Both the position numbers and the translations under genes were made by a program. The notes under the pieces are model-generated. The model saw only the letters and a list, made by a program, of their open reading frames with translations. It was not told where the DNA came from and made no database searches. Shown here in pieces: positions 3,166 through 10,054 of a stretch of DNA of 64,000 bases; the first letter of the stretch is position 1, and every line of letters begins with the position of its first letter. Source of the DNA: a virus. Location of the stretch: positions 2,767-66,766 of the IMG/VR virus record IMGVR_UViG_3300037851_000503; one strand, given 5' to 3'.

Positions 3166-5289
3166 ATGCCGACGACTCAAGGCGGGCAATCAGCAGCGGT
3201 AGTAACAGGAGCGGGAGCAGGTTCCAGTAGACCGTCCAAATATGAGGCTCCGTATCAGTGGGATGGTACGAGGCCAAGCGCTCAGCGTATCCTCTCCTGG
3301 ATGAATGAGTGTATTCAAGAGGGAGAGATCTTCCTTAGAGGACAGAGTGGGTATAGATTTGTCGATACCTCTCATCGAATCATGGCTGATATTGGTTTCG
3401 ATGAACTTCCTCGTACATTATCTAAGAACTCGAAAAACTTTGTTAAGAGGAATATAAGGGAGCTAGTGGGAACACTTGCTAATCCTCGTCCTATTGCTTC
3501 CTTTAAGACCGATAATAAAGATTGGGATGGACAGGCTGAGATTATAAATAAGGGATATCTTCACTGGTATCTGGCTGCCTTCGCGGATCGCAAGCTGAGG
3601 GAAGCTCTTCAATTTGCGGCGGTCGAGGGGACAGGATATCTGGTCATGGAATGGGACCCTGGTTACTGGGCTCCAGGAGATGGAGAGATATCTCTTCAAG
3701 CTCTAGGAGTTGATGCTGTTCTTCCTATCCAAATCTCTCCTGAGGATTGGGACCTCCAAAAAGCCTATGCTGTCATTATCCGGCGTCAATATCCCATCTT
3801 CCATGTGATGAGACGCTTTCCTCTTGCTGCCCATCTTATCTCTCCTGATGGAGAGGCGGTATCTAAGTGGAGAAGGTTAGTTAACAATCTGCTTGATAAG
3901 GTAACTCCGACAGTCCAGAATACCTATGGTACTAATAGAGGTTATCGGGGAGAAGACCCCGCAGGCAGACAGTTAGTAACCGTCTACGATATCTATATTC
4001 TCGATGGTCAGGTTAATATGTCTGAAGGCCCAATAAAGAAAGGGGTTTCAGGCTCTCCATGGGAATACAATGTCCCTTCCTATCGCTCTCCTATTCCTAC
4101 TGGAATAAACGATCCTTATACGGGAATGCCTATTACTCGTCAGGCGGACTACCATGACTCAAGGCTCTTTCCCTATCGCCGCCATATTACCGCCACTAGA
4201 ACTGCTATTCTCTATGATGATACGTCCAGGTGGTGGCATGGACAAGTACCCTTAGTTAAGTTCCGTCTTGACGATTGGCCGTTTGAGTATTGTGGAATCC
4301 CAAGTACCAAAGATCCAGCCAAGTCTCAGTCGATGTTCACTTCTCTCTGGAGAGCATATGATGATTCCGCCAATGCGCGCCTGCGTCCACCAGTAGGTTA
4401 CGATAAGGATAGGGTGAGCGCGGAGGCAGCTAAGATCGATCTAAGGGTGGGAGGACAGGTCATTGGAATGAGGAATATGATGGGAGAGCCCTTTAAACTC
4501 CTGGCTGATCCTCGTTACTACCAGATGGGACAAGACATCCTTCCTTTCCTGGAGCGGATCGAAGAGGGAGCTACCAAGCTGATGGGCCTTCATGACCTGA
4601 CAGCCATGGCTAAGGCGGCTCAAGTTCCGGGCGCTGACACTATTGAGAAGTTGGCTGAAATGGCTGGCCCTATTGCAACTGATATGTCACGTAACATGGA
4701 GGCATCGATCAGGGATGTAGGAGAGCTATGGAAGGCGATGTTCTTTGAGTTCTACAGTGTTAGGAAGAGATTCCAGATATTAGGAAGGGATGGAGTAACT
4801 AGAGAGGACTTTGACTTTGATCCTTCAACTCTTGTCCCTAGTAGCCTTGATCTTCCTGTCGTAGGTCGAGGGGGAACTAGGAGCGAGAGAGCAAGAGTTC
4901 ACATGAGAAACTTCCACTTCTCTATCGTTCCCAACTCTATCTATCAGATGACTCAGAGCACCAGGAGATTACTTCTCTTACAGCTTGGTAGGATGGGAAT
5001 TCCATTGTCTCCTATCTACCTGATGGAACAGTTCGATATCCCCAATCCTGAAAAGAGAGTGGAGGAGTTCTTTGAATATAAAGCGGAAGAGGCTCAGAAG
5101 ATGACTGAGATTCAGATGTTAGTCCAGGGAATGAATCCTCTAATGCAAATGGCTGGGGCTATGCAAGGAATGCTGAAGGGCGGGAATAGACAGGAGGGAA
5201 GACCTCCGAGTGGGCAGAAGCCTCCAAGGATGGAAGAAAAAACTGATGGAACAGGAGTTCCGACTAGGACGACTATTGCGGAATCTTAA
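3166..5289 (+). CDS. Portal protein (putative)
   Basis: 707-aa ORF directly downstream of the terminase large subunit; size and position are typical for a portal; RBS gagaggtatcat before the ATG. Confidence 0.5.
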   Translation: MPTTQGGQSAAVVTGAGAGSSRPSKYEAPYQWDGTRPSAQRILSWMNECIQEGEIFLRGQSGYRFVDTSHRIMADIGFDELPRTLSKNSKNFVKRNIRELVGTLANPRPIASFKTDNKDWDGQAEIINKGYLHWYLAAFADRKLREALQFAAVEGTGYLVMEWDPGYWAPGDGEISLQALGVDAVLPIQISPEDWDLQKAYAVIIRRQYPIFHVMRRFPLAAHLISPDGEAVSKWRRLVNNLLDKVTPTVQNTYGTNRGYRGEDPAGRQLVTVYDIYILDGQVNMSEGPIKKGVSGSPWEYNVPSYRSPIPTGINDPYTGMPITRQADYHDSRLFPYRRHITATRTAILYDDTSRWWHGQVPLVKFRLDDWPFEYCGIPSTKDPAKSQSMFTSLWRAYDDSANARLRPPVGYDKDRVSAEAAKIDLRVGGQVIGMRNMMGEPFKLLADPRYYQMGQDILPFLERIEEGATKLMGLHDLTAMAKAAQVPGADTIEKLAEMAGPIATDMSRNMEASIRDVGELWKAMFFEFYSVRKRFQILGRDGVTREDFDFDPSTLVPSSLDLPVVGRGGTRSERARVHMRNFHFSIVPNSIYQMTQSTRRLLLLQLGRMGIPLSPIYLMEQFDIPNPEKRVEEFFEYKAEEAQKMTEIQMLVQGMNPLMQMAGAMQGMLKGGNRQEGRPPSGQKPPRMEEKTDGTGVPTRTTIAES

Positions 5290-5569
5290 AGGTTCTATTA
5301 ATATAATCCTATTCATTTAGGATTATCCTTCTAACAGAAAGCTGGGGGAGATTGATGTCTCCCCCTTTTCTTTTAAGTATTGATGAGTACCTCAATACTT
5401 CCGCGATGTTGGATGTTATAAATAGTAGCTGTTGGATAGTGATCTTCTACGTACTCTACTATGTCCTTAACATTTCCAGCTACTATGCCTATTGTTTTAT
5501 TAGTGGCCCAGGTCTTCCCTTCCGGGGGCGGGATAGACAAATAGACCTGCCAAAACTTTAGTTCATCCA

Positions 5570-6043
5570 TTATTTTGTTAGCTCTCTAAGCTCTTTCAGA
5601 CGCTCATTGATCTTGGCTCTCTTTTCCTCAGCGGTGGCCAACTGCTCAGCCTGAAGCTCAAGACCTCTGATCTCTCTTAGCCTGTCAGCCCTTAGCTTCT
5701 CGCTAAGATCTCTACTACAGGCTCTTAGAGCCTCATCCAGTTCCTTAGGAACATCGTGACCGTTAGCCTTGATCTGGTTGGCAACCACCTGAAAGTATGC
5801 CTCAGCGATAATCAACTGAGGAATAGTGGCGGCGGTTCCGTACTCAATAGTCATAAAGCTCTTAACATACTGTCTCTCATAGGTATTCATCTTTTGCTCC
5901 CTCCTTTCCTTCATAATCTGATCTACTCTCTGTGGGGGAATTGCTCTCCCTGAGACATTTCGTCCTGGTCCTGACCAATATAGATCTTTCATTAGATCAG
6001 AAGCCAGCATTCTTGACAGTTCTTCCCAAGTCATATCAGGCAT
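5570..6043 (-). CDS. Hypothetical protein, coiled-coil C-terminus; last gene of the tRNA-rsr operon
   Basis: Overlaps the stop of the Ro60 gene by 8 bp on the same strand; no recognisable motif. Confidence 0.4.
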   Translation of the reverse strand: MPDMTWEELSRMLASDLMKDLYWSGPGRNVSGRAIPPQRVDQIMKERREQKMNTYERQYVKSFMTIEYGTAATIPQLIIAEAYFQVVANQIKANGHDVPKELDEALRACSRDLSEKLRADRLREIRGLELQAEQLATAEEKRAKINERLKELRELTK

Positions 6044-7526
6044 TAAGCACCTCCTCGATAGTAAGGAGAGGAACGTTTAAGATCTCCGTCAAGAGGCTGT
6101 ATTTATTGACTCTTAGTGTCTCAACGATGTTAGGAAGGCTATTATAGTCAACCTTTCCTCCTCTCACATCGAAGACCTCTATTCCATCCATGGACATAAT
6201 GGTAGGAAATTTAGGATCGGAGATTGCGTTCATGTCTCCATCCACGTTGAAGTGATAGACAGTCGGCTCCTTCCCATACTTATCTGAATACTTTCTATAA
6301 GCATGCACAAAGTATGGCGGCGAGTTATCTCCTCCATCCGAGACGATTGCTATCCCATCTACTTCCTCATTCATTGAGTCAAGGTAGGATAGTCCGCAAC
6401 CAATCGATGTTCCTTCTCCTGACTTTACATGTTTAGTCAGGTTATTGATCTGAAAGTAGTTCTTTCCTGTCACATCAAAAGGAGTAGGAGCGGTATTGAA
6501 GTAGATCAGCCATACCTTCCCACTAACTCTCTCAGTAATAAGAGAGGCTATTTTTCTAGCAAGCTCGATAGATGTGGACATACTACCTGAGGCATCTGCC
6601 AGTATGAGCCAGTTACCTTCAATCGATCCAAGTTGCTTTGTAGCATGAGCTTGCAAGTTAAGCAGACCATCGGCGAAGTATTCGCTTCTCTCAGCAGCGA
6701 TTCCCGCTTTAAGGACATTGAGCTTCTTGTCCTCTTTTGCTCTAAGAAGGGCAGCATTGTAAGCGGCCATAAGGACTGGATCGTTTTTCACTCCTAACTT
6801 TTCAAACATCTTGGAGTTAGTAACAATCTGGTTACCTGTAGCTCCCTCAAGTAACGCCAGAATAACATCCTTGTTCTTGATGTTACTCGTAGCTCCGACC
6901 ACTACCTGGAAAGGTATATCGTTCCCCAGAATTAGGGCCGCTGCCTCCTTGGCCGTTACCTTTCCTAACATAGCCACCTTCTCGAATACTGATCCGCTTG
7001 GATACTTTCCTTCAAAGAGAATCTCCTGCGCTCTTTTAGTCGGCTTATGATGGGACAGCCGATAAAGCCTCTTCATCGAGTCTCTATGTTGCAGGACAGT
7101 CTTGTCCCACCATTTAGGTTTCTGCTGTCTTACCTCAAGATAGCCATGAAGAGCTACTTCCAGGAGATCTCTAAAGCCGTTCTTTATTGGCTTTCCGCTC
7201 CTGGTTAGTTCCCTGGAGAAGTTATAAGCCCTAACCAGATCTCTAGGGGAAAGGGTAAGCAGATGCGCGATTGAATTCTCGGCCAGCGTTGCCTCATTCT
7301 TTCCCAGAACTCTAAGGCTAATAATAGGATAGGCGATCTTACTATCTCTTACCTTTCCTTTTATTCTATTCCATGAAATAAGATGGGCTAGAAGTTCAGG
7401 TTCAGCCCTGGCAGCCTGAAGTCCCATCTCTAGATATCCGTCCAACTTCCCATGCTCGATCTTCATTAGAGAGGCAATGAGATTCCTTCTCTCATATTCT
7501 TTTCTCTCTTCTAAGTTTCTTGCCAT
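6036..7526 (-). CDS. rsr: Ro60/Rsr ortholog (TROVE domain + vWA domain)
   Basis: Motifs match human Ro60 as recalled from memory: LYRLSHHKP vs LLRLSHLKP in the TROVE helix; vWA MIDAS ILADASGSM vs LLAVDVSASM; GEGTSIGCGL...AIVSDGGDN vs GGTDCSLPM...VFTDNET. N-terminal helical ~300 aa plus C-terminal vWA, total 496 aa. Confidence 0.75.
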   Translation of the reverse strand: MARNLEERKEYERRNLIASLMKIEHGKLDGYLEMGLQAARAEPELLAHLISWNRIKGKVRDSKIAYPIISLRVLGKNEATLAENSIAHLLTLSPRDLVRAYNFSRELTRSGKPIKNGFRDLLEVALHGYLEVRQQKPKWWDKTVLQHRDSMKRLYRLSHHKPTKRAQEILFEGKYPSGSVFEKVAMLGKVTAKEAAALILGNDIPFQVVVGATSNIKNKDVILALLEGATGNQIVTNSKMFEKLGVKNDPVLMAAYNAALLRAKEDKKLNVLKAGIAAERSEYFADGLLNLQAHATKQLGSIEGNWLILADASGSMSTSIELARKIASLITERVSGKVWLIYFNTAPTPFDVTGKNYFQINNLTKHVKSGEGTSIGCGLSYLDSMNEEVDGIAIVSDGGDNSPPYFVHAYRKYSDKYGKEPTVYHFNVDGDMNAISDPKFPTIMSMDGIEVFDVRGGKVDYNSLPNIVETLRVNKYSLLTEILNVPLLTIEEVLNA

Positions 7527-7544
7527 CCTTACTTTCTCCTTTCA

Positions 7545-7617
7545 TGGCTAGAGGGAGAGTTGAACTCCCGACACCTGGGTTTTCAGTCCAGTGCTCTACC
7601 ACCTGAGCTATCTAGCC
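7545..7617 (-). tRNA. tRNA-Phe (anticodon GAA)
   Basis: Manual cloverleaf: acceptor GGCTAGA/TCTAGCC, D arm GCTC..GAGC, anticodon loop CTGAAAA, T arm GGGAG-TTCAACT-CTCCC. Confidence 0.8.
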
Positions 7618-7661
7618 AATGCAATACAATACAATTTTCGACATATTAAATTGCAGTATAG

Positions 7662-7733
7662 AGCAGGCGATGGGACTCGAACCCACAATTCTCAGCTTGG
7701 AAGGCTGAAGCGATACCATTACGCTACGCCTGC
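7662..7733 (-). tRNA. tRNA-Gly (anticodon TCC)
   Basis: Acceptor GCAGGCG/CGCCTGC, anticodon stem TCAGC/GCTGA with loop CTTCCAA, T loop TTCGAGT. Confidence 0.75.
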
Positions 7734-7789
7734 AAAGTTAGGATAGGTCTGAGGGATTTGTTAGTCCGGCTTTGTTACCTATCCTAGAT

Positions 7790-7862
7790 AGCCCCAGGAG
7801 GACTTGAACCCCCGACCTTGCGGGTAGAAACCGCGTGCTCTAATCCATCTGAGCTATGGGGC
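7790..7862 (-). tRNA. tRNA-Arg (anticodon TCT)
   Basis: D arm GCTC-AGATGGATTA-GAGC, anticodon stem CGCGG/CCGCA loop TTTCTAC, T arm GGGGG-TTCAAGT-CCTCC. Confidence 0.75.
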
Positions 7863-7888
7863 CAAGAGGTTTGGTTATCCTATCCTAA

Positions 7889-7960
7889 TCTGGGTGGCAG
7901 GAATCGAACCCGCGTGTACTAGCTCCCAAAGCTAGCGGACAACCATTATCCCACACCCAG
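7889..7960 (-). tRNA. tRNA-Pro (anticodon TGG)
   Basis: Acceptor CTGGGTG/CACCCAG, anticodon stem CTAGC/GCTAG loop TTTGGGA, T arm GCGGG-TTCGATT-CCTGC. Confidence 0.7.
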
Positions 7961-8031
7961 AGACGATCTAGGGGAGACTTGAACTCTTTCGTAGAGGGGC
8001 CAGCAAATAGGACGATGGCACTCCCATTTAG

Positions 8032-8214
8032 TTAATCCTTCCAAGGCATTTTCATTGGGTCTTTATCAGTACCAATGGGATGGTAGTAGGTATAGAAACA
8101 TTCCTGACATAAATATAATTTGGGTCCGTATTGACAGGTTAGCATCTTTACCTTTTCCTCTTTCTCTCGAAAAGCCTTCCACCACTTCTTAAAATATTCA
8201 ATCGTTAATTTCAT
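8032..8214 (-). CDS. Hypothetical small protein (CxxC)
   Basis: 60-aa ORF, CQYG..CQEC, ends 4 bp inside the ArfB-like gene; weak. Confidence 0.2.
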   Translation of the reverse strand: MKLTIEYFKKWWKAFREKEEKVKMLTCQYGPKLYLCQECFYTYYHPIGTDKDPMKMPWKD

Positions 8215-8537
8215 TTAGGTAGATACTCTACTAAAAGATTCTCAGGACTCATCATCTCCTCAACTATCTCTTCAAGAGTCCTATTCATGCGCCTTCTAAC
8301 AACCTGCGCCCTACACCAGTTCTGAAACTCCTTAGTGTTAGCCATTCTCTGCCAAGCTGCCCTCTTATTCTGGATCTGGTGACGATGTTCTCTACTCTCT
8401 CCTCTAGCTCCGGAAGGATGATGGATGATCCTAACCCCACTCTCAGTCTTGTTCTGATGCTGTCCTCCCTTTCCTCCACTGCGAAAGGTCTGGACCTTGC
8501 AATCCTTAATTGTAACGCTGAAGACTAGATGTTTCAT
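8211..8537 (-). CDS. ArfB/ICT1-like peptidyl-tRNA hydrolase (class-I release-factor GGQ domain)
   Basis: SGGKGGQHQNKTESGVRIIHHPSG is the canonical RF-1/ArfB GGQ catalytic motif with the following VR(I/L)TH..G; basic tail; 108 aa. Confidence 0.7.
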   Translation of the reverse strand: MKHLVFSVTIKDCKVQTFRSGGKGGQHQNKTESGVRIIHHPSGARGESREHRHQIQNKRAAWQRMANTKEFQNWCRAQVVRRRMNRTLEEIVEEMMSPENLLVEYLPK

Positions 8538-8649
8538 AAATCAAAATAGGGGAATGCTCATCACTAGAACATTCCCCACGGCGGATAATAATTATTGAAG
8601 GCTAAGCGTAAAAGGATTTCGTTATTTGCCTTACCACTTAGGCTAACCC

Positions 8650-8745
8650 TCCACAAGAAAGCGGAGGGTCTAGGATTCGAACCTAGAGTCTCGGTTTTGG
8701 AGACCGAAGCATGTAATCTCTTTACTGGCCTTCAAATTTAAAATA
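8650..8745 (-). ncRNA. tRNA-like element: CCA-anticodon-like hairpin + canonical T arm + closed acceptor-like hairpin; atypical 5' half
   Basis: Minus-strand reading: TCGGT-CTCCAAA-ACCGA, then CTAGG-TTCGAAT-CCTAG, then the ACCCTCC-gctttcttgt-GGAGGGT hairpin. No canonical 5' acceptor strand or D arm was found by eye. Confidence 0.3.
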
Positions 8746-9149
8746 ACGATAGTGGCATAGCTTAAAGGGAGTTTTGGCTGTCCAGCCCCAGCAACACATC
8801 CATCAGATATGCTCCTGGCGGGTTGGACATGTAGTCTCTTCAATGGCCACTAAACTTGGCCCGAAGGGTAGGGCGTGCACGTACACCACTACGGATAAAT
8901 TGCGGATCTGCGAGTCGCACGCAGCGCAGTGGGCTTATGAGGCCCTCTTGGGCACTGACCCATCCGCAACAAATAATGATGATCGCTAAGCTCAAAGGGC
9001 TATGACCGCTTTGCTACCCCGGCATCAGATAGTCTCCCTCACTAACCTATCTTCCTCCATCACAAGTTAATAGACACAGAAAGGAAGACCATCTGGAGCC
9101 GGGGGCTGGAGTTGAACCAGCGTTGATGGCGATCAATCTCATTAGGTAC

Positions 9150-9220
9150 TCCTCAACCAGGACTCGAACCTGGGACATCTACGTTAACAGCGTAGCGCTC
9201 TACCAACTGAGCTATTGAGG
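9150..9220 (-). tRNA. tRNA-Asn (anticodon GTT)
   Basis: CCTCAAT-AGCTCAGTTGGTAGAGC-GCTACGCTGTTAACGTAG-ATGTC-CCAGGTTCGAGTCCTGG-TTGAGGA: perfect cloverleaf. Confidence 0.8.
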
Positions 9221-9244
9221 AATACAGAAGCTAAGCGACAAGGG

Positions 9245-9300
9245 ATTCCAGATTGCATAGATGGAATTGAACCACCAAATGAGCTATATGCATGTATTCT
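9245..9300 (-). ncRNA. Mini tRNA-like element (acceptor + D-arm half + T arm, no anticodon arm)
   Basis: Minus strand: ATGCATA-TA-GCTCATTTGG-TGG-TTCAATT-CCATC-TATGCAA. Confidence 0.25.
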
Positions 9301-9499
9301 CTTGTCTGGCCTCTGATCTCTTCAAATTCTCAAATAACTCTTTGTCCTCAACCGCAAGCACCTTTAGATAAAGCTCAAAAGCCTGTCTCGCATGATAGGA
9401 GACATTGTGCTTACCAGTAGGATCTTTAAGGGATCTGAGTTCTTCCCAGATCCCTTTATCTACCACAATTGTCACTCGTTTCGTCGTTTCCACGAGCAA
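9284..9499 (-). CDS. Ribbon-helix-helix (CopG/Arc-like) DNA-binding protein
   Basis: N-terminal KRVTIVVDKGIWEEL beta-strand plus helix pattern typical of RHH regulators; 71 aa. Confidence 0.4.
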   Translation of the reverse strand: MLVETTKRVTIVVDKGIWEELRSLKDPTGKHNVSYHARQAFELYLKVLAVEDKELFENLKRSEARQENTCI

Positions 9500-9694
9500 T
9501 TATACATACTCGTTCATACTCTGCAAGACCCTTTTTATTAAATATTTCTAATCCTTCTAAGTTATTCTATTGACTAATACTTAGATATTAAATAGAACTC
9601 TAAGTGAGGGAGCTTTCAGGTTCCTTGTTACATCCTTACTTCAGTGCTACGGGGGAGAGGGCAACTTCTCCTCCTTATTTGAAAGGTAATAAAG

Positions 9695-10054
9695 ATGCCA
9701 GTAATGCCACTAATGCCCGGAGGGGCTGATCAAATGGCGACTCCAATGCCAGGGGGTCCGGCAGGTGGAGCTTATCCGCCTTCGCCGACAGGTGCGGGGC
9801 CGTCAGGAGATCTTGCTTCGCTATTAGGAATTGGTGGAGTCCCTTCCATGGGTGGGGGAGTAGATCCTCTTCAGGGAGCGCTGGGACAATTCGACATGCT
9901 CGCGCAGATGATTAGTGATCTGGCGAGAGCATTCCCCGGATCGGAACAGATCGCATCCCAGATGATGGAAGCCCTCGACGCATGGCGTCAGCAGGTTTTG
10001 ATTATGGCAACTCCTCCTTCCAGCGCAATGCCGGGAGCGGATGCCATGATGTAA
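9695..10054 (+). CDS. Gly/Pro/Met-rich hypothetical protein (first gene of head module)
   Basis: RBS plus ATG; low-complexity PGG repeats; precedes the scaffold-like gene. Confidence 0.4.
   Translation: MPVMPLMPGGADQMATPMPGGPAGGAYPPSPTGAGPSGDLASLLGIGGVPSMGGGVDPLQGALGQFDMLAQMISDLARAFPGSEQIASQMMEALDAWRQQVLIMATPPSSAMPGADAMM

Follow-up and report, generated by a model that had tools for sequence, protein, structure and literature searches.

Organization of the locus

The stretch of viral DNA analysed here (hereafter the window) corresponds to 64,000 nucleotides (nt) of IMG/VR record IMGVR_UViG_3300037851_000503 (positions 2,767-66,766, window position 1 being its first letter) and carries, at 5344-9600, a minus-strand cassette flanked by plus-strand structural genes. 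In this cassette, a 496-amino-acid (aa) open reading frame (ORF) related to Ro60 is preceded on the same strand by tRNA genes and by four structured RNAs resembling Y RNAs, the latter located 1.07-1.8 kb upstream of its start codon (7526). The location of these features is given in Table 1. An initial annotation, made from the sequence alone, had singled out the region as a candidate phage Y-RNA locus within a tRNA array, a proposal which gains support from the YrlA architecture, the strong covariation and the 15:48 pair described below. The four canonical tRNAs (Phe, Gly, Arg and Pro) that it placed directly upstream of the gene, on the same strand, were all recovered by both ARAGORN and Rfam (57.7-68.9 bits with the latter).

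Table 1. Features of the Ro60-like cassette and of a second tRNA cluster in the window (R1 and R2 are covariance models, see text).
Feature	Position	Strand	Basis or remark
Portal-like ORF	3166-5289	+	one flank of the cassette
Bidirectional terminator-like hairpin	5344-5365	.	closes the minus-strand cassette
157-aa ORF	5570-6043	-	start overlaps the Ro60 stop codon (6036-6043)
Ro60 homologue, 496 aa	6036-7526	-	predicted HEAT-repeat ring and vWA domain with MIDAS (adhesion site dependent on metal ions)
tRNA-Phe(GAA)	7544-7618	-	ARAGORN and Rfam
tRNA-Gly(UCC)	7661-7733	-	ARAGORN and Rfam
tRNA-Arg(UCU)	7787-7864	-	ARAGORN and Rfam
tRNA-Pro(UGG)	7888-7961	-	ARAGORN and Rfam
60-aa ORF	between tRNA-Pro and RF-1-domain ORF	-	ORF list
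RF-1-domain protein, 108 aa	8211-8537	-	Pfam PF00472, E 1.1e-17; PHROG 3122, E 4.7e-30
Intrinsic-terminator-like hairpin and U tract	8549-8577	-	11 pairs, 6 G-C, tail TATTTTGATT; directly after the last Y-like RNA
Y-like RNA, YrlA-like (class 1)	8592-8738	-	fold, R1
Y-like RNA, hairpin core	8750-8852	-	fold, Y-stem scan
tRNA-like gene, CAU anticodon	8899-8969	-	ARAGORN
Y-like RNA, class 1 variant	8975-9143	-	fold, synteny
tRNA-Asn(GUU), canonical, between two Y-like RNAs	9148-9222	-	ARAGORN; Rfam 71.8 bits
Y-like RNA, class 2, internally deleted	9223-9318	-	R1, R2, synteny
71-aa ORF	9284-9499	-	ORF list
Plus-strand ORFs resume	from 9695	+	other flank of the cassette
Ile(GAU)	58849-58923	-	Rfam does not find it
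Ile(GAU)	59110-59186	-	weak, 39 bits
His	59269-59347	-	weak, 47.7 bits
tRNA-Ile(UAU)	60114-60186	-	canonical, 71.9 bits

A deeply diverged phage homologue of Ro60

Judged by its predicted fold and by profile-profile comparison, the 496-aa ORF is a genuine, deeply diverged homologue of Ro60 that fails the curated family models (see below). The AlphaFold2 model, computed with 45 homologues (predicted local distance difference test, pLDDT, 89; predicted template modelling score, pTM, 0.79), is helical over residues 1-298 and alpha/beta over residues 300-496, a layout that corresponds to the helical HEAT-repeat ring followed by a vWA domain expected of a Ro60 protein. When this model was compared with PDB using Foldseek, the first 13 places were all occupied by Ro60 structures (phiLo, human, Xenopus and Deinococcus), with template modelling (TM) scores of 0.53-0.67 and alignments of ca. 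500 columns that span the full length at ca. 15% identity, isolated vWA domains ranking below. The best structural match was the Ro60 protein of Thermus phage phiLo (E 2.4e-9), and the top matches among viral models included a crAss-like phage TROVE protein and the "Ro-like RNA binding protein" of Gordonia phage VanLee.

At the sequence level, HHalign profile-profile comparison of the family with four canonical phage Ro60 proteins gave a probability of 97.5% and an E-value of 7e-12 over 353 columns covering both domains. It paired RLSHHKP with RLAHP, DASGSM with DVSGSM and GGTS with GGTD, which are the blocks that the initial annotation had named as shared with Ro60; its identification of the ORF as Ro60 is borne out as that of a remote homologue, Ro60 alone heading the Foldseek ranking. 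The motifs RLSHHKP and DASGSM occur in the ORF itself, and the MIDAS residues D311, S313, S315, T373 and D397 are invariant in the 45 homologues. Other searches returned little: phmmer against PDB found nothing, HHalign of the family profile against single canonical Ro60 sequences was not significant, the hidden Markov model (HMM) profile of the family gave a marginal match in PDB (E 0.07, to phiLo Ro60), and a weak match to phrog_850 "RNA-binding protein" was found in PHROGs (E 1e-4).

More than 190 metagenome homologues of the ORF were collected, none of which is annotated as TROVE, and an exhaustive profile search yielded, in clusters at 50% identity, 409 matches at E < 1e-30 and 1,435 at E < 1e-3. 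Since 75 matches occur in viral contigs as opposed to 5 in 185,579 species genomes, all of these 5 being on short contigs of metagenome-assembled genomes, the family is essentially restricted to phages. By sequence comparison, it is a separate, deeply diverged branch relative to canonical phage Ro60.

Four structured RNAs upstream of the Ro60-like gene

The RNAs of the window were analysed by folding and with two covariance models, R1 for class 1 (YrlA-like), built from the window copy 8592-8738 and three relatives, and R2 for class 2, a cloverleaf inside a Y stem. All four window RNAs have in common a 7-bp outer helix, an asymmetric internal loop (5' YA(CU) / 3' G(A/C)(C/U)UU) and a second helix, together with an invariant UACAUG in three of the four. 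The first of them, 8592-8738(-), is 147 nt long and consists of the 7-bp outer stem, the internal loop (5' CA / 3' GCUUA), the second stem, UACAUG and a V hairpin, after which come a T arm, a loop-closed acceptor stem and a D arm. It has no anticodon loop, its own ends pairing instead as a stem of at least 14 bp. Positions 8590-8745(-) fold with a minimum free energy (MFE) of -52.3 kcal/mol (z = -5.2), and the RNA, being a seed of R1, scores 151 bits with this model. In the second, 8750-8852(-), the module formed by stem, internal loop and UACAUG surrounds a plain long-hairpin core (8745-8855(-), MFE -42.5 kcal/mol, z = -3.95), and an orthologue is found at L002 5323-5426, L numbers (L001, L002 and so on) designating viral contig stretches with a Ro-like gene or control stretches.

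The two remaining RNAs have suffered deletions. In 8975-9143(-), the outer stem and the CA / GCUUA loop are accompanied by a T arm, an acceptor stem closed by a hairpin of ca. 75 nt and a D-like arm (8975-9147(-), MFE -76.3 kcal/mol, z = -6.2). The UACAUG and the V arm, both present in the orthologues of L001 and L002, are missing from the window copy, the deletion being visible in the synteny alignment. This copy was not detected when the window was scanned with R1, and it is assigned to class 1 from its fold, from synteny and from its orthologues, which score 64-66 bits with R1 (L001 1094-1250 and L002 5112-5245). In 9223-9318(-), the stem, the CA / GCUUA loop and UACAUG are followed by an acceptor stem and a T arm only. 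Both models match it over their full length (R2 36.5 bits, R1 35.7 bits), the fold of 9218-9322(-) reaching a z of -1.6 only. Its counterparts in L001 and L002 are complete cloverleaves (L001 875-1003, L002 4754-4883), relative to which the window copy is internally deleted, the anticodon arm and the 3' half of the D stem being absent. Neither 9223-9318 nor 8592-8738 is called by the Rfam tRNA model above threshold. At gathering threshold, Rfam reports only tRNAs over the region, an additional partial tRNA match in the window falling below threshold.

These results modify the initial annotation in several respects. It expected one YrlA-like RNA; such an RNA is present, within a set of four Y-like RNAs of three architectures. 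The tRNA-like element that it placed at ca. 8650-8745 proved to be the core of 8592-8738(-), made up of its T arm, its closed acceptor stem and its D arm, and the acceptor stem and T arm of its "mini-tRNA" at 9245-9300 are real, although they do not form a free-standing element and belong to the truncated cloverleaf inside the Y stem of 9223-9318(-). Folding of the minus strand, which it recommended in order to look for a bulged terminal helix, revealed the outer stem with its internal loop but not the YrlA motif GNCGAAN0-1G. The GC-rich island that it described at 8560-9060 is non-coding as stated and contains two Y-like RNAs, a segment of another one and an unusual tRNA-like gene, but its GC content is only mildly raised (0.53 vs ca. 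0.44). It overlooked tRNA-Asn 9148-9222 and the Y-like RNAs 8750-8852 and 8975-9143, and 8899-8969, which it included only as part of the island, was not recognised as a CAU tRNA-like gene. Finally, the tRNA-like element proposed at 7961-8040 was rejected because it has neither a stable fold (7958-8050, z = +0.94) nor any conservation; no model matches it and it shows nothing beyond a T-loop-like word.

Conservation and covariation in related loci

When the region was compared by blastn with 50,697 phage records, only tRNAs gave matches, so that no close sequenced relative was found, and the loci underlying the alignments below encode Ro proteins only 33-67% identical to that of the window. 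Among 65 non-redundant sources scanned with R1, 35 contained a total of 49 matches (E < 1e-5), often two to four per locus, all of them upstream of the Ro-like gene and on the same strand. In the alignment of these 49 sequences, 95.4% of the cells are paired as compared with 61.9% after shuffling and 37-48% with slid partners, and compensatory changes are seen in 30 of 31 pairs. The class 1 consensus is composed of a 7-bp stem, an internal loop (5' Y-A-(C-U) vs 3' G-(A/C)-(C/U)-U-U), a second stem, the invariant UACAUG, a V arm, a T arm (GGUUCGAAUCC), an 8-bp closed acceptor stem, U-A, a D arm and an A-rich linker. This is the architecture of YrlA (terminal stem, YUAY, V, T, loop-closed acceptor stem, D), the YUAY element occurring as UUAC within the invariant UACAUG. 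The Rfam YrlA model aligned over its full length with relative L033 4147-4282 (40.9 bits, E 1e-5), with the elements in the same order.

The D-loop nucleotide equivalent to position 15 of tRNA and the one at position 48, immediately 5' of the T stem, form a pair that is either A:U (25 sequences) or G:C (13), with 0 exceptions, and that has the highest mutual information of the whole R1 alignment. This covariation was not built in, since both columns are unpaired in the model, and it is the signature reported for YrlA by Chen et al. (PMC4201824).

A second class became apparent from odd tRNAs that ARAGORN recurrently predicts ca. 0.2-1.5 kb upstream of the Ro-like gene in related loci, in which TACAYG immediately precedes the tRNA and a complementary trailer follows. 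With R2, which was counted at 65 bits or more, ordinary tRNAs scoring at most 61 bits, 58 such elements were found in 52 of the 64 loci scanned (ca. 80%). All but two (56 of 58) share the strand of the gene and lie upstream of it, with a median spacing of ca. 900 nt, and their alignment has 91.6% of cells paired vs 61.3% when shuffled, with compensatory changes in 34 of 36 pairs. In class 2, the stem, internal loop and UACAUG module surrounds a complete cloverleaf in normal order, often followed by NCCA. The anticodon triplets are almost random (AAU, ACU, AUC, AAA, UUA and UCA are among them) and some anticodon loops measure 6, 8 or 13 nt, which points to mimicry rather than decoding.

A generic Y-stem scan of the 64 loci gave 242 matches on the forward strand vs 41 on the reverse, and in the window recovered 9225-9315, 8750-8852 and 8596-8734. 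Many of the matches measure only 62-75 nt and have a hairpin as core; these short RNAs may be regarded as analogous to YrlB.

Linkage to Ro genes, divergent and canonical

The specificity of R1 was assessed on 100 viral stretches (921 kb) picked without regard to Ro, using E < 1e-4. These control stretches were drawn from viral contigs with the loose DNA pattern TACATG-N(15-45)-GGTTCGAATCC, which served only as their source and is itself unspecific, a Ro gene being present in 13 of 59 informative matches. R1 found matches in five stretches, four of which hold a divergent or a canonical Ro gene. In three of these four, the match lies on the strand of the gene and within ca. 2.5 kb of it; in the other (L152), the stretch ends within the Ro match, and the fifth stretch is too short to judge.

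R1 also matched (L080 1139-1270, 42.8 bits) a YrlA-like RNA of Streptomyces phage Comrade, which corresponds to ca. 68618-68749 of MH651172.1, where it is not annotated. This RNA lies 670 nt upstream of a canonical Ro-like gene and shares the 3' CGCUUA loop. At its gathering threshold, Rfam detected no YrlA in four canonical phage Ro loci; as the Comrade RNA is found by R1 and not by Rfam, genuine phage members seem to escape the 69-bit cut-off of the Rfam YrlA family (RF02553). The canonical Ro gene of Comrade sits among tRNAs and that of Myxococcus phage Mx1 adjoins an annotated peptidyl-tRNA hydrolase, so that the cassette context of the window appears as a recurring theme.

Comparison with known Ro60-Y RNA systems

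The kind of system is already known, since phage Ro60 proteins with YrlA-type RNAs were reported in 2014 (Chen et al., PMC4201824) and the Ro60-Yrl complex of phage phiLo was solved in 2025 (PDB 9KOP, 9L5Y; PMC12135203). With bacterial Rsr/YrlA (Salmonella, Mycobacterium smegmatis; RF02553; PMC4201824), the window family has in common an RNA encoded less than 4 kb from the gene and on the same strand, the terminal stem with internal loop, YUAY, the V and T arms, the loop-closed acceptor stem and the D arm, the A:U or G:C covariation at 15:48, and a 3' loop word, (C)G(A/C)CUU, that resembles the ACUU of YrlA. It differs by a protein invisible to Pfam TROVE and vWA_Ro60, by RNAs below the Rfam cut-off (21.8 bits, and 40.9 for the best relative), by YACUG or CCAG in place of GNCGAAN0-1G together with an invariant UACAUG, by several paralogous RNAs per locus, by the lack of an rtcBA operon and by its confinement to phages.

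Thermus phage phiLo likewise encodes a Ro60 with two or more Y-like RNAs (Yrl1, Yrl2) just upstream, but the two proteins are only ca. 15% identical and the phiLo RNAs are defined by a CGAA motif and a stem-bulge-stem, no tRNA-like domains being reported (PMC12135203). The canonical phage "Ro-like RNA binding proteins" (355 phage records, actinophage and others) also have their genes among tRNA genes or beside peptidyl-tRNA hydrolase and, in Comrade, an R1-type RNA upstream; unlike the window family, which has no match, they reach E 1e-47 on TROVE and vWA_Ro60. Class 2 shows the arm order of Deinococcus radiodurans Yrn1 (D, anticodon-like and T from the 5' end; Yrn1 orientation according to PMC4201824), yet its acceptor stem and D arm are both complete and accompany the Ro-type stem, whereas Yrn1 has partial D features only and no acceptor stem. 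Finally, 8750-8852 and the stems of 62-75 nt recall Salmonella YrlB, a Y RNA without tRNA-like domain found beside YrlA, this likeness being architectural only.

Interpretation of the locus and alternative explanations

The 496-aa protein is homologous to Ro60, the RNAs are structured and conserved across related loci, and they are strictly linked to the gene; taken together, the locus probably represents a phage Ro60-Y RNA module. By analogy with known systems, the RNAs would be bound as Y RNAs, and a partner and a biological role in the window phage may be proposed as follows. Four small RNAs would be transcribed from the Ro60 strand upstream of the gene, interleaved with ordinary tRNA genes. 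The shared stem, loop and UACAUG module would dock on the outer face of the Ro60 ring, as in Xenopus, Deinococcus, Salmonella and phiLo, leaving the variable core as an effector end, be it a permuted tRNA-like domain folding to the L-shape of tRNA, a complete cloverleaf or a simple hairpin. Through this end, host proteins with an affinity for tRNA or structured RNA, for instance polynucleotide phosphorylase (PNPase), would be recruited or occupied, and host RNA surveillance and decay might be redirected or dampened while the phage expresses its own tRNAs.

Several observations weigh against this interpretation. On the protein side, the 496-aa ORF has no match at E <= 10 to Pfam TROVE (PF05731) or vWA_Ro60 (PF25045), the only match being to VWA_2 (E 0.036, below cut-off), whereas two canonical phage Ro-like proteins used as controls score E 1e-47 and 9e-50 with TROVE and E 5e-47 and 4e-54 with vWA_Ro60. 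On the RNA side, the match of Rfam YrlA in the window is local and partial (8628-8687, model positions 30-81), with 21.8 bits against a gathering score of 69, and the best score among relatives, 40.9 bits, is still far under it. The YrlA 5' motif GNCGAAN0-1G, a proposed Ro contact, does not occur in the family, in which the consensus at this place is Y-A-C-U-G (GGCCAGUAA in the window); as another motif replaces it, the mode of docking could differ. Two of the window RNAs (8975-9143 and 9223-9318) may be decaying or non-functional copies since they are deleted relative to their orthologues, and PNPase is suggested as effector partner by analogy only, its binding having been demonstrated for phiLo (PMC12135203). 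The initial annotation had asked for a TROVE match and for an Rfam covariance match above threshold, and neither was obtained. Taken literally, this overturns its proposal, yet we do not regard it as decisive because both thresholds are too strict for a branch this divergent.

Another reading of the same module, which we consider rather unlikely, is counter-defence: the Ro60-like ring would display a small library of tRNA mimics, comprising permuted L-shapes and complete cloverleaves with freely varying anticodon loops, which would act as sponges or decoys for tRNA-targeting host factors. Such factors could be anticodon nucleases, tRNA-modifying or tRNA-sensing enzymes, or PNPase, and the decoys would protect the tRNA array that the phage encodes in the same cassette. 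Should this be the case, the cloverleaf in a Ro-type stem would represent a previously undescribed class of Y RNA, occurring with the YrlA-type topology in most of these phages.

It is improbable that the outer stems are RNase III-type leader-trailer processing stems which mature unusual tRNAs, the Ro-like gene merely happening to travel in the same tRNA cassette. In phages, tRNA arrays give polycistronic transcripts, and helices of this type are found around rRNAs; moreover, class 2 RNAs hold a complete cloverleaf, often with NCCA after it, and the elements are interleaved with genuine tRNAs. The same module, however, is also found around plain hairpins and permuted T-acceptor-D domains, neither of which could give rise to a tRNA, while ordinary tRNAs of the arrays lack it, as is the case for the window tRNAs and for tRNA-Ile 60114-60186. 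Its conserved internal loop breaks the helix, the anticodon triplets that it would help to mature are unconstrained and include A34 triplets in addition to loops of 6, 8 and 13 nt, and R1 matches track Ro genes, divergent and canonical, being absent from other viral DNA.

The T-acceptor-D elements could in principle be tRNA genes in circular permutation, or parts of a transfer-messenger RNA (tmRNA) of the two-piece (permuted) kind, from which RNAs functioning in translation would be processed, an idea to which we give very little credit. Their gene order (T arm, 3' strand of the acceptor, 5' strand of the acceptor, D arm) is that expected, weak sub-threshold tmRNA matches are seen on orthologues of 8975-9143, a tmRNA of this kind is present in the related locus L060, and an ArfB-like gene of ribosome-rescue type is found at 8211-8537. 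Nonetheless, an anticodon loop is lacking, the two ends of the RNA pairing with each other over at least 14 bp where the anticodon stem would be, no reading frame for a tag is present, a tmRNA is not predicted by ARAGORN anywhere in the window, and the architecture is that of YrlA down to the V arm and the YUAY motif. Equally remote is the view that we are dealing with tRNA pseudogenes in decay, or with tRNA-like folds that arose by chance in a non-coding spacer: prompted by the deletions in 9223-9318 and 8975-9143 and by 7961-8040 with its T-loop-like word and no fold, and possible for the two deleted copies, it is refuted for 8592-8738 and 8750-8852 by the pairs that show compensatory changes (30 of 31 and 34 of 36, among 49 and 58 sequences from loci whose Ro proteins are so diverged), by the invariant motifs and by a fixed position and strand relative to the gene.

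With regard to the Ro60-Y RNA module, three aspects are new: a large phage-restricted branch of Ro60 undetected by Pfam, a Y RNA family below the Rfam threshold with the stem motif YACUG and UACAUG in place of GNCGAA, and the coexistence of permuted, cloverleaf and hairpin cores on one shared module. Ro60 and Y RNAs form a conserved and poorly understood RNA-surveillance system, and work on its role in phages has only just begun (phiLo, 2025). A branch almost absent from cellular genomes, associated with an RNA family that has one candidate docking module and at least three kinds of effector core, offers material for defining the RNA features recognised by Ro60, for finding the partner recruited by the tRNA-like end and for understanding why phages have these genes in their tRNA arrays. 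These data also indicate that current Pfam and Rfam thresholds under-annotate phage Ro60-Y RNA systems.

Neighbouring genes and other tRNA-like features

In the minus-strand reading, two small ORFs stand between the 496-aa ORF and the terminator-like hairpin at 5344-5365. The 157-aa ORF 5570-6043(-), for which Pfam and PHROG searches gave no match, is kept only in the nearest relatives (L001-L005); it is probably co-translated with the Ro60-like gene and may be a lineage-specific partner of its product. The RF-1-domain gene 8211-8537(-), which lies between the Y-like RNAs and the tRNAs, encodes a putative ArfB-like peptidyl-tRNA hydrolase of ribosome-rescue type, as indicated by its domain matches, and in 9 of 75 related loci the Ro-like gene has a homologue of it nearby. 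The orientation of the whole Ro/tRNA cassette, opposite to that of the portal-like gene and of the downstream plus-strand genes between which it is set, suggests that it is mobile or accessory. GC-rich hairpins with T tracts bracket the cassette at 5344-5365 and 9651-9674, and the 119-aa ORF located directly after it (9695-10054(+)) is rich in Pro, Gly, Ala and Met and of low complexity.

The tRNA-like gene 8899-8969(-), labelled tRNA-Met by ARAGORN and not matched by the Rfam tRNA model, has a 3-bp D stem without GG motif, a T loop UGCGACU and no surrounding Y stem. Its cloverleaf folds with z = -2.5 and is conserved, with compensatory changes, at L002 5246-5322. ARAGORN "Met" calls resembling it, with the anticodon at position 30, were also obtained in L027, L030 and L060.

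The second tRNA cluster of the window (58849-60186(-)) is devoid of any Y stem. Its tRNA-Ile 60114-60186 was considered as a class 2 RNA (60.8 bits with R2) and rejected as an ordinary tRNA, its flanks being unpaired and lacking UACAUG.

In L060, ARAGORN predicts a permuted (two-piece) tmRNA at 2034-2446 with the tag AEDNALPMAA, within the tRNA array upstream of the Ro-like gene. Suppressor-type anticodons (UUA, CUA) were found at L011 8430-8505, L015 10981-11056, L016 2364-2438, L038 9431-9516 and L046 3852-3926. Those of L011 and L046 belong to cloverleaves inside Y stems; the other three appear to be array tRNAs, and stop codons could be reassigned or suppressed in some of these related phages.

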